Sequence record: OR885871
Direction: 5' to 3' (one strand)
From: Escherichia phage vB_EcoM_JN03
DNA: 64,000 nt
Part shown: in pieces, positions 22,280-26,423 of the stretch
Position numbering within the stretch: position 1 is the stretch's first letter
Layout of the letters: every line of letters begins with the position of its first letter
The notes under the pieces: generated by a model
The model's database searches: none
Seen by the model: the letters and a program-made list of their open reading frames with translations, nothing else
What the model was told of the DNA's origin: nothing
Translations under genes and position numbers: made by a program

Positions 22280-22574
22280 AATAGACCTCCTTTACAAGTC
22301 AGATCTATTTATTATAGACAAAAAGAAGCCCGATCTTCCTGATCGGGCTATGGTTAAACCATCGTGGGGATGGAAAGACTACTCACAGCAATTTCTGGTA
22401 TTAGGCGTTTGGGAGAGTGCGTCGGGAATCGAACCCGAAATCGTCAGGACGTTGAAAGCTATTTGCATTTCACTTGCATATCCTGCGACTTTCTTAACTT
22501 CCTTAACCCCAGATTGTTATGAAGTCGGCATGCACACCTTCTTCATCTTCAGGAAGTCACACTCATTATTCTGA

Positions 22575-22660
22575 TTGCTTCAACTGGATTCGAACCAGTG
22601 ACCTCAGGCACCTTGTTCTCTCGAAACTTTCCTGCGCTCTACCACTGGAGCTATGAAGCA
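22575..22660 (-). ncRNA. tRNA-like element: canonical acceptor, D and T arms but a 36-nt region in place of the 17-nt anticodon arm
   Basis: Minus strand reads TGCTTCA-TA-GCTC-CAGTGGTA-GAGC-...-ACTGG-TTCGAAT-CCAGT-TGAAGCA-A; no 5-bp/7-nt anticodon stem-loop found by exhaustive sliding. Confidence 0.4.
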
Positions 22661-22663
22661 ATT

Positions 22664-22752
22664 TGGCGGAAGGTGAAGGATTCGAACCTTCGGGGGCTAA
22701 AAGCCCCACTCGATTAGCAGTCGAGTCCCTTAAACCTCTCGGGCAACCTTCC
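22664..22752 (-). tRNA. tRNA-Ser (anticodon GCT), type II with long variable arm
   Basis: Folded by hand: acceptor GGAAGGT/ACCTTCC, anticodon stem CTCGA/TCGAG, loop CTGCTAA, variable arm GGGGC-TTTTA-GCCCC, T-arm GAAGG-TTCGAAT-CCTTC, encoded CCA. Confidence 0.75.
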
Positions 22753-22968
22753 GTATACTGCGCTTCGGTCAAGAATTTTCCAAGCCATGACCTAAATCTG
22801 GGTTCTTGACCTGACCGAAACGACTTATTGGTGCTCGTTAGAGGATTTGAACCCCAGCACTCTGGTGATCAACCCAGAGAGTCGCGCCTCATCCATTTGT
22901 TAGCCTAAACGAGTCTTGCAAAACCCGCACCGACCGTCTACAAACAGACTGCTTGACCGAGCGTAATG

Positions 22969-23044
22969 TGGAAGGAGCACCAGGATTCGAACCTGAGATC
23001 GTGGGATCAAAACCCACTGCCTTAACCAACTTGGCTATGCTCCT
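22969..23044 (-). tRNA. tRNA-Gln (anticodon TTG)
   Basis: Acceptor AGGAGCA/TGCTCCT, anticodon stem GTGGG/CCCAC, loop TTTTGAT, T-loop TTCGAAT, encoded CCA. Confidence 0.7.
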
Positions 23045-23574
23045 AAATGCCGGAACCCGATTATTTCACCCGCTTCCTCAGCGCTCGGGTTAACACACTG
23101 CCTTACAGCTTCCACTCTCTTCGTTTCTCGGCTTCCAGAGAGTCTTATGGGCACAGCTGGCTGCAACGCTTACTGTGTCTGGTCTACCACCGCGTGCTGG
23201 GCCACGCTTGAGGACATCGGCCATCCTTCCTCAGCTAATCCACGCGGTGGTAGATTTGTATCAGAGTGTCCGGTGTAGCTTTCCGTGAGGTGCGCACTAC
23301 TGTAGCCTCTACACTCTGAATTTGGTGGGGGTTACTTTCGTCGGGTTCAGATTCCGTTCGGCTATTAGACGTCGCTCGAGAGAACTTGTCGTTCGCGTAC
23401 TTCGTGCTTACTTGCTTTCGTTTCACACCCATTGTTTGTCGTCGGGCGGGGGATTCAAACCCCAATCTTTAGTTTGTGTTTCTTCAAAGCTATCATATGT
23501 TCACTTTGAATACTAGACTCCCCTGGACATCAAAACAGGATCTCTATTCCATCCTGTAAGACCCGACATAATCC

Positions 23575-23650
23575 TGGCGACGATGGCAGGACTTGAACCT
23601 GCGACATATGGATTAACAGTCCACCGTTCTACCGACTGAACTACATCGTC
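23575..23650 (-). tRNA. tRNA-Asn (anticodon GTT)
   Basis: Acceptor GACGATG/CATCGTC, D-arm GTTC-AGTCGGTA-GAAC, anticodon loop CTGTTAA, T-arm GCAGG-TTCAAGT-CCTGC, encoded CCA. Confidence 0.75.
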
Positions 23651-23849
23651 ATTTATTCTTGTTCGCTTCGATCGCCCTTAATTGGGCGTCCGCGTCAGCT
23701 TTGGTGTCATGTGTCCCAAGAACTTTAGTCTTGGTGTGGTCAAGGACAACCCACTTATCGCCTCGCTTTTCAACAAACTCAACAATCTCTTTGTTGTCAG
23801 TAGCGAGACCATCCCACTCAGTAAGAAAATCACCGAACGTTTTCATCAT
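23649..23849 (-). CDS. small hydrophilic protein (66 aa) embedded in the tRNA cluster
   Basis: Start at MMKTFGDF with GGTGAG RBS; CTAAATA motif about 30 nt upstream; stop abuts tRNA-Asn. Confidence 0.4.
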   Translation of the reverse strand: MMKTFGDFLTEWDGLATDNKEIVEFVEKRGDKWVVLDHTKTKVLGTHDTKADADAQLRAIEANKNK

Positions 23850-23886
23850 ACTCACCAATTGTTTATTGAACAACTGGTTTATTTAG

Positions 23887-23962
23887 TGGTGACCCTGGCT
23901 GGACTTGAACCAGCGACCAATCGATTATGAGTCGACTGCTCTAACCACTGAGCTACGGGGCC
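23887..23962 (-). tRNA. tRNA-Met or tRNA-Ile (anticodon CAT)
   Basis: D-arm GCTC-AGTGGTTA-GAGC, anticodon stem GTCGA/TCGAT, loop CTCATAA, T-arm GCTGG-TTCAAGT-CCAGC, encoded CCA; one C-A mismatch in acceptor stem. Confidence 0.65.
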
Positions 23963-24286
23963 AAAATTTGGCGGGGTCTGAGGATTTTCACCTCTCCTTG
24001 CTGGTTTGGCCGCCAGCCTGTTCTCTCTGGGGACTCGCTGTCCGGACAGCTGTCCCTTAAACTATCGCCCCATAATTTATTGTGTGACCAACCAAGGTCT
24101 CTCAACCCTTTATCCCGTTTGTGCATGATCAGTTCATGCATGCCTGTTTGTGCGCCTCACGGCAACGCGCTTCTGTGGGTCTTTGGCTTGCACCGTAGCC
24201 TCACCACAGGCGTTTATTTTTCCAGGGCTTTCCACTTGCAAGTCTTAACCATACAGGGATACGGGCTTGCAAGATCGGGTTGGACA

Positions 24287-24364
24287 CAACTTTGATGGCT
24301 CTGGTACTAAAGATCCCGCGTCACCCATAGACATGGTTTATAAAATCCAGAGCCATCAAAGTTG
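24287..24364. repeat. perfect 18-bp inverted repeat (CAACTTTGATGGCTCTGG) with 42-nt spacer
   Basis: Arms 24287-24304 and 24347-24364 are exact reverse complements; lies in ORF-poor island. Confidence 0.7.
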
Positions 24365-24743
24365 CAACCAAATGTCACAACTCGCATTCAATGTCTTCGT
24401 CACACCGAATACTTGTCCTCTATCGCTCGGACCAAACGAGGCTGGCCGAAGAAACAAAACACCACTCAACACTAGAGCGAGGATGTGGTTGATAGCCACG
24501 ATGTAATGTCTCTATCGAAGAGTGATCACACTTGTCAGATGATCACTGTTTTGCGAACTCGAGAATACTGCGCCTGTCTCGGGTTTCCCCTTAGTTCGGC
24601 CTCTCATTGTTCATCCGGTCAGGGAGCTACCCTTGATGACCAGCTTATATTGAGATCTTCGCCAGCGCCCACCAGTGTCTAGAATGTGTAGGCGTCGAGG
24701 TCTGCAAGGCATTGCCCTATTTCATACAACGCTCTCTCAAGTA

Positions 24744-24877
24744 CGCAAATCGAAGTTCTCTGGGCTTAACAGGTTCGACCCAACATGTTGTATATCGCCT
24801 AACTTACTCATGGGACGGCCACTTCTGTGTACAGACCTTGAGGGTTAAAAGATATACCCAAAGAACTTCGATTTGCG
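24744..24877. repeat. 21-bp inverted repeat (20/21 match) with ~92-nt spacer
   Basis: Left arm CGCAAATCGAAGTTCTCTGGG at 24744-24764, right arm CCCAAAGAACTTCGATTTGCG at 24857-24877. Confidence 0.65.
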
Positions 24878-25028
24878 TTGTGGGGGCAAACCCCCACACG
24901 GCTACTTCTTTGACAGGGATTGCTAGCCCTGGGGATTCCACTGTTTAAGGCTTTATCCCATAACGCCCGAGGCGCGTTTTAACTTATTGAAGCTTGCATA
25001 ACTGCAAACTGATGCGCTGTGAGACACA

Positions 25029-25153
25029 TCTTTGAGGGCACTCAGTGTACAACAGGCTCCGATATTTCATAGGGCATTACTGCCTCGGATTTAAGTTGCC
25101 TTTCTCCTGAAACTCCATACAGTCTCGCGTCTGACGCGGAATGCCCTCAAAGA
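25029..25153. repeat. 13-bp inverted repeat with ~100-nt spacer
   Basis: ATCTTTGAGGGCA ... TGCCCTCAAAGAT; spacer contains a CGCG-TCTGA-CGCG hairpin. Confidence 0.5.
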
Positions 25154-26219
25154 TATGGAGCCGTTTTAGGGAGTCGAACCCAAATGCTTGGCCAGCGCTG
25201 ACCTTACATCCCATCTGACTTAGGCAACCCACCTCTGCTTACTCAGGAGCTTATCCCCTTTGGACAGTCAGATATAACGGCTTTGGGATTGGAGGAAGGA
25301 CTCGAACCTTCTCATGTACGCTCCTGATTTCTCAGAAGTAGTCTGCTCCCATCGACCTATTAAGTACACGCTCCGCTCATTGTCGGCGGGAGATTATTAA
25401 TCACACCCTCCCGCCTATTTTAGTGCGCCGAATTTTGTTATGAGGAATCGGAAGACCTCACTGGTGTATGGCTATTAAGCTACTGCCAGGAACGTGTTAT
25501 CATTAGCGATTATTTTTGTGGTCAGTTTCTAAAAACCCGCAAAGTCACGCACAACGAAAACGAAAACCTGTTTGAGTCCTAAACCTACCTGTCTTGGTCT
25601 CACATCGCTATGAGTGGCCAGGACTCAAACAGCTTGCCGTTCAGTGAGTTAACTATACTTTGTAACCCGTTATTGATAAAACCTTTTATTTTGTTGGCGA
25701 GGGTGCGGAATCGAACCACACTTCTGAGCGCTACCCCGTGTCACCAATGCACCACCTCACCATCGATTTGCCGGAACTTACGCATCCGGCCTCGTCCTGT
25801 CGGTGTTCTTCTGAATCCGGGAAGATCAGCAGGAACTATGAATCAAGTTAATTCAACCAACAGGAATCCTCTTGTTGCCCTTTGACGCAACATTATGAAC
25901 CCTCTATGAAGACTCATAATGTTGTCGGCGTGATGGAGATTAGCGCCCCCGACCTCCCCTTATATGTTGGTGTCAACTTGCCAACAGGGTGCTCTCTGAT
26001 TCTGAGCTAATCACGCTACAACAGGGAGTTTCGTTCTCCGACGGTCAAGTGCGTCCACTGACACCAGCGAGGTGGCTATTACGCCTCTATTCACACAAGC
26101 CCCTGAGACTAGGGGTTAACTGGTTTTGGGCTGCAAACCCGACTCCCACTGTGTTATTTCCCTCATGTTTAATACTTTACCGCAGCCCAGCTAATTTGAA
26201 AAGTCCTCTCCCCTTTGAG

Positions 26220-26366
26220 CTACACTGCCCACAGCAGTGCGGACGAACCTTCACTCAAAACCGGATGCGCCGAAGTGGGCAACTGTTTACCGGACTGATC
26301 GGGTAGACCCAGGAGAGAGCAGGTAATCCCGATCAGGAGGATGAGGAGTAACATCATGTAAAACAT
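26220..26366 (-). CDS. small hydrophobic peptide (48 aa), below ORF-track cutoff
   Basis: Hand-translated MFYMMLLLILLIGITCSLLGLPDQSGKQ...; strong RBS GGAAGGGAGGG. Confidence 0.3.
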   Translation of the reverse strand: MFYMMLLLILLIGITCSLLGLPDQSGKQLPTSAHPVLSEGSSALLWAV

Positions 26367-26423
26367 AGTGTTCCCTCCCTTCCATGCAACTAACTTTACT
26401 ACAATTATTTATTGAATAAAGCG

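Follow-up and report, generated by a model that had tools for sequence, protein, structure and literature searches.

Transfer-messenger RNA (tmRNA) has so far been treated as an indivisible tRNA-plus-mRNA machine. Complete phage tmRNAs are known, as are phage tRNA clusters that contain extra stable RNAs, and to our knowledge the phage versions of tmRNA are either complete molecules or inhibitors that consist of the tRNA-like domain only. We analyzed a stretch of 64,000 nucleotides (nt) from Escherichia phage vB_EcoM_JN03 (OR885871; hereafter the window), a Kuttervirus-type Ackermannviridae phage. The window contains a gene-poor island at 22280-26420, and within the island, on the minus strand, lies an element of ~190 nt (25383-25570) that we call the tag-template RNA. 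Although it is not a tmRNA, this RNA shares the features that define the mRNA-like domain of tmRNA.

Like standard and two-piece tmRNAs, the element comprises an A-rich leader that contains U(-5)A(-4), a GCN resume codon and a 10-codon tag of the AND... type that lacks a start codon and ends in hydrophobic residues and Ala, with stop codons in the loop of hairpin H5 and pseudoknots after the open reading frame (ORF). It differs from them in its size, in the absence of a tRNA-like domain in cis, in having two rather than three downstream pseudoknots, and in a conserved 5′-terminal motif that is complementary to host tmRNA; an equivalent of the 5′ pseudoknot PK1 was not demonstrable. Mycobacteriophage DS6A encodes a mini-tmRNA without coding sequence, consisting of the tRNA-like domain only, that is reported to interfere with host tmRNA (PMC11915505). 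Both are phage-encoded partial tmRNAs, of which that of DS6A is reported to inhibit the host molecule, but they represent opposite halves: a tRNA-like domain without tag ORF in DS6A, a tag template without tRNA-like domain here. Trans-acting small RNAs (sRNAs) with a 5′ seed and sRNAs of prophage late regions (STnc100/PasD, AgvB, AsxR) share with the tag-template RNA a conserved single-stranded motif at the 5′ end, and other prophage sRNAs also share its location in the leader of the lambdoid late operon. In contrast to these sRNAs, the tag-template RNA lacks a Rho-independent terminator, is more elaborately structured and contains a constrained ORF, and its proposed target is a noncoding RNA (tmRNA) instead of an mRNA.

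Results

The tag-template RNA

A search for distant BLAST matches to the tRNA-free part of the island showed that a segment at ~25393-25561 of the window matched unannotated DNA in many unrelated phages. Alignment of these matches revealed a colinear element of the form ...AAAAAUAAAU GCA AAC GAU ... GCU UAA UAG, and the RNA given above is supported by alignment, covariation and sub-threshold Rfam tmRNA matches. In the window it starts with a duplicated 5′ motif (GUUUUCGU, 25567-25554), which is followed by the A-rich leader with U25512 and A25511 at positions -5 and -4 of the resume codon GCU (25507-25505). The frame GCU AAU GAU AAC ACG UUC CUG GCA GUA GCU UAA UAG (25507-25472) specifies the 10-codon tag ANDNTFLAVA (25507-25478), has no start codon and closes with UAA UAG (25477-25472). 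These stops fall within H5 (25489-25461), after which come pseudoknot a (25460-25428) and pseudoknot b (25427-25385).

In E. coli tmRNA, U85 and A86 occupy positions -5 and -4, and A86 is nearly universal and sets the reading frame (PMC2481249). The tag-template RNAs have the same U(-5)A(-4) in a single-stranded A-rich leader, and AUAA at -6 to -3 was invariant in 58 diverse sequences. The ORF is under coding constraint. All 100 unique sequences have a GCN resume codon and a 10-codon ORF, as in a tmRNA tag, and stop at codon 11 in frame 0, whereas the other frames are irregular. At codon 10 each of the four Ala triplets occurs (in 50, 26, 22 and 1 sequences), synonymous changes are the only ones at codons 1, 2 and 7, and the middle codons vary freely, as they do in bacterial tags. 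The resulting peptides (ANDDVVLMAA, ANEEMYLAVA, ANDNTFLAVA and similar) resemble ssrA tags and have the consensus AND....[LM][AV]A. Conventional translation of the tag ORF was rejected: an in-frame UAG is present 8 codons upstream, with no ATG, GTG or TTG in between.

We built a structure model by hand, comprising H5 and two consecutive H-type pseudoknots, and scored it on an alignment of 58 sequences (A2). Its 23 pairs were formed in 97.5% of cells, compared with 30-48% when the partners were slid. Compensatory changes were found in 15 of the 23 pairs, and cells with a double change numbered 138 against 3-31 in controls. The covariation supports H5, with the stop codons in it, and the pseudoknots after it, the order seen in tmRNA. 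The Rfam models tmRNA_permuted and beta_tmRNA align exactly to the tag region, at scores that remain below their thresholds (20.6-24.7 bits, 20.6 in the window, versus 47 for tmRNA_permuted; 14.6 versus 84 for beta_tmRNA).

The other half of a tmRNA was not found. ARAGORN called no tmRNA in the window or in ~40 loci, and neither an acceptor stem with G3.U70, T-arm and CCA enclosing the molecule nor a paired second piece was detected. The complete genome of Klebsiella phage YX3973 (L268), which carries the tag-template module, contains no tRNA and no match to a tRNA-like domain. Downstream of its RNA cassette, at 46840-46875 on the minus strand, is a truncated tRNA 3′ end (..AATTCGAATCCTGTCGCGGGAACCA), and relatives (L018) have three intact tRNAs at the place of this remnant. 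Two further candidates were rejected. In a cloverleaf model, the repeated arms found on either side of the module in lambdoid phages (L = ACAACAGGTAAGAGCATTG, R = CAGTGCTCTTTCCGTTGTG) would pair across it; L087 rules this out, as its 5′ and 3′ hairpins are unrelated and each pairs with its own partner only. Capture of host ssrA at prophage ends was dismissed because no locus contains a tmRNA detectable by ARAGORN and the element sits between Q and S.

The 5′ motif and host tmRNA

A nearly invariant motif, (U)AGUUUUCGU, opens the module. It is terminal, since strong promoters end 3-7 nt upstream of it in CHB7 and in YX3973, where the module lies behind its own promoter (TTGACA-17-TAGATT). In lambdoid phages and Ackermannviridae the 3′ strand of a hairpin or of a tRNA-like element immediately precedes the motif. 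Codons 3-6 of the tag ORF in tmRNA of the E. coli type are complementary to (U)AGUUUUCGU: nucleotides 97-106 of E. coli ssrA (codons GAC GAA AAC UAC; the tag ORF starts at 90) have TAGTTTTCGT as their exact reverse complement. This target is present in every ANDENYALAA-type ssrA among 120 gammaproteobacterial loci. Among 29 flank variants, 16 have a contiguous Watson-Crick match of 10-11 nt and 11 have one of 8-9 nt; in L048, where the core CG is lost, the match is extended further 5′. For the duplicated motif of the window, pairing with the E. coli ORF is predicted at -15.2 kcal/mol; this value comes from short-window duplexes, which were used because RNAduplex returned meaningless long structures for the full-length RNAs. 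The motif may be a seed of the sRNA type: it is terminal and invariant and can form 8-11 nt duplexes with the E. coli-type tmRNA ORF, a match that was recognized post hoc. Pairing of the motif with the ORF of its own module was also considered and rejected. It amounts to only 4 bp in most variants, and the constancy of the motif while the phage codons 3-6 vary argues against an intramolecular partner.

This complementarity suggests that the tag-template RNA acts on host trans-translation, most likely on the tmRNA-SmpB machinery. The 5′ motif would dock the RNA on host tmRNA, and either the host tag would be blocked or the phage template would be presented instead. The outcome would be an altered fate of the proteins released from stalled ribosomes late in infection. 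In the more far-reaching version, the tag-template RNA would be the phage half of an inter-genomic two-piece tmRNA that docks on the host ORF and offers its own template. We think this version unlikely. Were it true, rescued proteins would receive a phage tag (...LAVA or ...LMAA) in place of ...ALAA, which would constitute a new viral reprogramming of ribosome rescue and protein quality control and the first trans-translation template supplied in trans.

The same features can be read as those of a mimic. The role of the RNA would then be to titrate one of the host factors S1, SmpB and RNase R, or a nuclease directed against phages, and its ORF would never be translated. The absence of a tRNA-like domain and the inhibition of host tmRNA by the DS6A mini-tmRNA are in keeping with such a decoy, and the best conserved parts of the element, pseudoknots and leader, correspond to reported S1 and SmpB contact regions of tmRNA (PMC2481249). 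However, variation that is synonymous only at codons 1, 2, 7 and 10, together with a fixed 10-codon length and stop, is hard to explain if no peptide is made. Some of this constraint can be attributed to the partial overlap of the ORF with the H5 stem, and we regard a decoy as unlikely.

Distribution of the tag-template RNA

Of 50,697 phage records searched with BLAST, 648 contain the element; these are all of phages with Enterobacterales hosts, and the element is almost never annotated in them. A degenerate pattern located it in more than 120 IMG/VR contigs. Among 5,426 complete E. coli genomes, 137 carry it, unannotated, in the late-operon leader, with the Q antiterminator on one side and the holin gene on the other. 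The segment 25570-25383 hence belongs to a widespread, unannotated RNA family of enterobacterial phages that reproduces the mRNA-like domain of tmRNA. Neither this module nor its spread over unrelated phages had been foreseen in a preliminary description of the window, which was based on its letters and ORFs. An RNA consisting of the tag template only is absent from Rfam 15, unannotated in RefSeq and not to be found in the searchable literature, in which no paper mentions the tag peptides, a 'tmRNA-like' phage element or an Ackermannviridae transcriptome. Mentions of tmRNA in papers on Ackermannviridae are citations of ARAGORN only, and the supplements of the tmRNA database paper hold no phage list.

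The genomic settings are diverse, including the tRNA clusters of Felix O1-like phages (where ordinary tRNAs flank the module), Schitoviridae, 46-kb siphophages, phage 7-11 and lambdoid prophages. The copy in Salmonella phage 7-11 (L004, 1500-1604, minus strand) is divergent: it encodes the tag ANDNAFRVAA and keeps the 5′ motif, the ORF and H5, and its second pseudoknot is apparently absent (the nhmmer match covers model positions 11-109 only). In lambdoid phages and siphophages the module is followed by a hairpin whose sequence is found by itself in lambda, downstream of tR' (J02459.1, 44782-44882). RNA modules were therefore presumably inserted and exchanged at such hairpins. In lambda the hairpin has ~20 bp (CACAACAGGTAAGAGCATTG...CCAGTGCTCTTTCCGTTGTG) and is annotated as part of 'orf-64'. 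Hairpins of this type recur as flanks of RNA modules in lambdoid prophages and 46-kb siphophages (L009, L124, L268); some copies have a T-arm in the loop, and a CACAAC/GTTGTG junction motif recurs at module borders.

The RNA island of Ackermannviridae

The island at 22280-26420 is 98.6% identical to that of Salmonella phage SenASZ3, and the region matched 357 phage records by megablast. A gene-poor gap of 2.5-5.1 kb occupies the equivalent place between the same flanking genes in every genus examined; the genomes compared were those of Vi01, Klebsiella phage 0507-KN2-1 (L126), Dickeya phage LIMEstone1 and E. coli phage ZQ1. In the window the upstream gene ends at 26424 and the downstream gene starts at 22279, both on the minus strand, and the G+C content is 0.47-0.54 in the island versus 0.39-0.45 in the flanks. 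The preliminary description had seen here an ORF-poor tract of ~4.1 kb without a convincing long ORF. Long ORFs are indeed missing: the longest on the minus strand has 76 codons, and of three plus-strand ORFs, the two that were compared with Pfam and PHROG (105 and 91 amino acids; the third, at 22260-22574, has 104) matched no family. Two small minus-strand ORFs that this description had passed over are genuine genes. One (26366-26220) encodes 48 amino acids with a hydrophobic N-terminus behind a GGGAGGG ribosome binding site and matches phrog_8415 (E=2.5e-33); its product is 92-100% identical in Kuttervirus- and Agtrevirus-like relatives and 48% identical over 29 amino acids in Klebsiella phages. 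The other (23849-23649) encodes 66 amino acids from the first ATG, matches phrog_3684 (E=1.6e-27) and is 75-96% identical at the protein level across five genera.

ARAGORN and Rfam agree on exactly four tRNAs, as anticipated, all on the minus strand and together 317 nt long: tRNA-Ser (gct) at 22664-22752, tRNA-Gln (ttg) at 22969-23044, tRNA-Asn (gtt) at 23575-23650 and tRNA-Met (cat) at 23887-23962. Only these four have a cloverleaf with a 7-nt anticodon loop according to both ARAGORN and the Rfam model RF00005. Large phage noncoding RNAs and introns, which had been suggested as candidates, were not recovered: a search for group I and II introns, GOLLD, ROOL, HEARO, 6S, RNase P and STnc100 gave nothing in the window at E<=10, and the Rfam matches there are confined to tRNA and the sub-threshold tmRNA fragments.

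Candidate transcription signals were found by consensus match. Sigma-70-like promoters lie at the upstream island edge (TTAAAA-17-AATAAT, 26404-26432, minus strand) and at 25652-25679 (TTATCA-16-TATAGT, minus strand), the latter with a sequence that is kept in relatives, and a putative strong intrinsic terminator (22319-22349, minus strand), made up of a GC-rich stem of 9 bp and then UCUUUUUG, closes the island. The cumulative GC skew has its minimum at 27000-27300, and gene orientation flips from minus to plus just upstream of the island; the ORF at 27306-29138 is on the plus strand, which suggests a divergent promoter region upstream of the island.

The noncoding sequence of the island is strongly conserved. 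With LIMEstone1, the segments 24296-23968 and 23886-23152 are 90.9% and 83.4% identical, as opposed to 70-74% for the flanking genes; with 0507-KN2-1, the modules are 75-97% identical and the flanking gene 72.6%. Because noncoding blocks are better conserved than the adjacent protein genes, and because they show compensatory changes, the island is functional rather than decayed, and a degenerated protein gene without conserved secondary structure, the alternative raised beforehand, is excluded. Taken together, 22280-26420 is a conserved minus-strand array of RNA genes common to Ackermannviridae.

The array is a mosaic. Close relatives differ through module-sized insertions and deletions, and tRNA-Tyr, tRNA-Trp, two of the modules described below (T2 and M) and alternative alleles of a third (T1) are present or absent depending on the relative. 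Vi01 has an extra tRNA-Tyr, the Klebsiella phage a tRNA-Trp, and LIMEstone1 retains tRNA-Met only. Genes for HNH homing endonucleases are inserted into the islands of 0507-KN2-1 (L126 4126-4686) and Salmonella phage SS3, and that of 0507-KN2-1 ends 9 nt upstream of the tag-template module. STnc100 is a prophage-encoded sRNA related to PasD. The RNA island of 0507-KN2-1, a virulent member of the Ackermannviridae, contains an STnc100 homologue as a 215-nt insertion at 2891-3105 (minus strand; 51.6 bits, gathering score 47), corresponding to ~24400 in the window; it was seen in the Klebsiella relative only. Several deposited Kuttervirus genomes (Salmonella phages aagejoakim, heyday, moki, dinky, bering and allotria) are linearised within the island, and some such records lack part of it, which may reflect difficulty in assembling a repeat-rich RNA region. 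The 'repeat_region' annotations at record ends were rejected as genome termini, being features of 21 nt.

The HNH insertions, the linearised records and the mosaic modules would also be expected if the region acted as DNA, for instance as a replication origin, packaging site or recombination and homing hotspot, with incidental RNA structures. We consider such a role highly improbable. Compensatory changes preserve pairing of the RNA type, including strand-specific G.U pairs, all tRNAs and modules are on one strand, the cumulative GC skew has no turning point inside the island, and the breakpoints of the records are not annotated termini.

tRNA-like modules and long hairpins

The minus strand of the 4.1-kb island contains 8 strict T-arm motifs (5/5 stem pairs and a UUCRANY loop), compared with 2 in the other 60 kb. 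The island has at least seven tRNA-like acceptor/T-arm modules, T1-T7, most of them closed and cloverleaf-like, with aberrant D and anticodon regions; none is called as a tRNA at the gathering score. Such modules had been described as T-arm and acceptor units lacking their 5′ halves. The units exist, but most do have a complementary 5′ acceptor strand, located 48-126 nt upstream. Single-sequence folding z-scores are unremarkable for most modules.

All of the modules and hairpins below are on the minus strand. T1 (25695-25761) combines the acceptor GGUGAGG/CCUCGCC, with U3.G70, with a T-arm and a shortened anticodon region and has no CCA; close relatives have an alternative allele with acceptor CACCGCA in its place. 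T2 (25284-25353) consists of an acceptor stem, a T-arm and an encoded C-CCA, lacks a D-arm, and has its anticodon arm replaced by a 7-bp stem capped by a GAAA tetraloop. It aligns weakly with tRNA-Sec, and its T-stem covaries in L103. T3 (25156-25281; acceptor GCCGUU/AACGGC) has two long arms, a T-arm and U-CCA, and in ZQ1 a copy of 95.9% identity is positioned after the tag-template module.

The proximity of T2 and T3 to the tag-template RNA raises the question of whether they are the acceptor piece of a two-piece phage tmRNA whose coding piece would be the tag-template RNA. T2 is found 30 nt downstream of this RNA, with T3 after it, both encode CCA, and in T2 the tetraloop takes the place of an anticodon loop; in each family, T-arm motifs often occur close to the module, and a tmRNA reduced to the tRNA-like domain has been reported in DS6A (PMC11915505). 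However, position 3:70 is G.A in T2, C-G in T3 and U.G in T1, so that T1-T3 lack the G3.U70 alanine determinant, and no pairing between the pieces is obvious. T2 is missing from Vi01 and L023, and ZQ1 has T3 only. The flanks in Felix O1-like phages are ordinary tRNAs, YX3973 has no tRNA-like sequence, and ARAGORN and Rfam report no tRNA-like domain. These observations make a two-piece phage tmRNA very unlikely.

T4 (23437-23567), with a 7-bp acceptor (GUCGGGU/GCCCGAC) around hairpins and a T-arm, is part of a block that is 83% identical to LIMEstone1. T5 (22829-22914) has an acceptor, a 6-bp stem with an 8-nt loop (GUUGAUCA), a T-arm and A-CCA; in its Vi01 homologue the two acceptor strands are swapped and pairing is retained. 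The acceptor, D-arm, variable loop and T-arm of T6 (22572-22660) are canonical, and its 'anticodon loop' of ~21 nt looks interrupted by an insertion of ~14 nt. T7 (22411-22564) combines a 7-bp acceptor (GAGUGUG/CGCACUC) with two large arms and a T-arm and has a z-score of -3.17. The cloverleaf-like module M (23969-24072) has a T-like arm (GAGG UGAAAAU CCUC), a 3′ G-CCA and three compensatory pairs, and is present in LIMEstone1 and Vi01 and absent from ZQ1.

The long inverted repeats of the preliminary description were confirmed and number six, with arms of 25, 22, 24, 22, 14 and 18 nt and spacers of 39-92 nt; its nested palindromes correspond to a cluster at 24518-24550. Hairpin I4 (25025-25157), with 24-nt arms and an 85-nt insert, is 87.5% identical in the Klebsiella phage. 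I5 (25568-25632), a 13-bp hairpin, is immediately 5′ of the tag-template RNA, and equivalents of different sequence flank the module in other phage families. I6 (23183-23254) is a perfect 14-bp hairpin with a 44-nt loop.

Known tRNA-like processing signals, such as mitochondrial tRNA punctuation and mascRNA-type elements, are likewise acceptor/T-arm minihelices between functional RNAs, some of them with encoded CCA. Unlike those, several island modules are conserved beyond what a cleavage signal would need, and cleavage is here a prediction. The tRNA cluster of phage T4 encodes the stable RNAs 'species 1 and 2' (RNA C and D), of unknown function and with tRNA-like 3′ ends. Their cotranscription with phage tRNAs is the same general arrangement as that of T1-T7, a likeness drawn from their description only; the present island is far larger and includes structured RNAs that are not tRNA-like.

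Other structured RNAs

Large structured RNAs or small processed RNAs had been proposed for the island, and the results support this: its noncoding modules outconserve the neighboring genes, and comparison across relatives revealed many compensatory changes in four segments, namely the tag-template module and three others on the minus strand. The first of these, Ack-RNA-1 (24081-24386), was modeled with RNAalifold on 12 diverse sequences. It consists of two 5′ hairpins and a multibranched domain of ~210 nt, which is closed by an 11-bp long-range helix (UGUGUCCAACC/GGUUGGUCACA), and it contains an invariant single-stranded stretch (GUGGAAAGCCCUGGAAAAAUAAAC). The second 5′ hairpin is I1 (24371-24280), the longest inverted repeat described earlier; its loop is variable. 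In the model, 98.3% pairing is canonical over 76 pairs, of which 15 are compensatory versus 0-5 in slid controls. Ack-RNA-1 occurs in each of the five genera and in 19 loci of IMG/VR, is 90.9% identical in Dickeya phage LIMEstone1, is directly followed by tRNA-Met in many relatives and has no Rfam match. The model thus supports Ack-RNA-1 as a new structured RNA specific to Ackermannviridae. Within it, the 49 nt at 24229-24277 are 87.8% identical to the unrelated 144-kb Klebsiella phage KP13-26.

Segment S1 (25770-26219; 15 sequences, mean identity 0.86) gave an RNAalifold structure of 104 pairs that are 99% canonical, with 18 compensatory changes versus 1-3 in shifted controls. Segment S3 (24393-24878; 16 sequences, mean identity 0.81) gave 99 pairs with 26 compensatory changes versus 2-9 in shifted controls, and includes hairpin I2 (24878-24743), which has 22-nt arms and a T-arm-like insert.

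This conservation bears on the view that the island is a tRNA graveyard, composed mostly of decaying remnants of a formerly larger tRNA cluster among which only the four tRNAs function. The differing tRNA content of relatives, the truncated tRNA 3′ end of YX3973, the mostly unremarkable folding z-scores and the module-sized insertions and deletions between close relatives could all be so explained. Decay does not account for noncoding blocks that outconserve adjacent genes across subfamilies, for helices kept by compensatory substitutions, for the swapped acceptor strands of T5 that still pair or for a tag ORF under coding constraint. The graveyard view is already largely refuted, and we assign it very little credence.

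Discussion

We consider it probable that the locus is a conserved Ackermannviridae island of RNA genes that includes the tag-template RNA, is processed into its component RNAs and acts on host trans-translation. Minus-strand transcription would yield one or two precursors and, after cleavage, stable small RNAs. Signals for RNase P and 3′ processing would be supplied by the tRNAs and tRNA-like elements, and the hairpins of ~20 bp are possible RNase III sites.

Several points weigh against this reading. The complementarity to tmRNA was noticed after the fact, the nearly invariant motif shows no true covariation with host sequence, and some family members have only 6-8 contiguous pairs. In Salmonella, the probable host, the tag ORF presumably reads GAC GAA ACC UAC, a probably imperfect target that would give 9 pairs with a bulge or mismatch. 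We know of no mechanism that decodes a tag template unlinked to an alanyl-tRNA-like domain, and of no precedent for a template supplied in trans. No equivalent of PK1 emerged in the 5′ domain, where RNAalifold found nothing consistent, manually chosen candidate helices showed no covariation and a brute-force covariation scan was swamped by phylogenetic signal. Plain local alignment of the element to E. coli ssrA was not significant. The promoter and terminator calls are consensus matches that occur at about the frequency expected from shuffled sequence, and the structures of S1, S3 and Ack-RNA-1 were predicted and scored on the same alignments, so that the controls flatter them. Every step beyond 'conserved structured RNA' is one that we infer.

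A template that is free of a tRNA-like domain, constrained in its coding and present in hundreds of enterobacterial phages points to a way of interacting with ribosome rescue that has not been described for phages. The carriers include Felix O1-like and G7C-like phages, phages of the BASEL collection and Stx-type lambdoid prophages, and the RNA modules appear to move as cassettes, passing between the late-operon leader of lambdoid phages and the genomes of virulent phages. Ackermannviridae find wide use in biocontrol, and the largest 'empty' stretch of their genomes gains a function-bearing annotation, with Ack-RNA-1 as at least one further candidate for Rfam.

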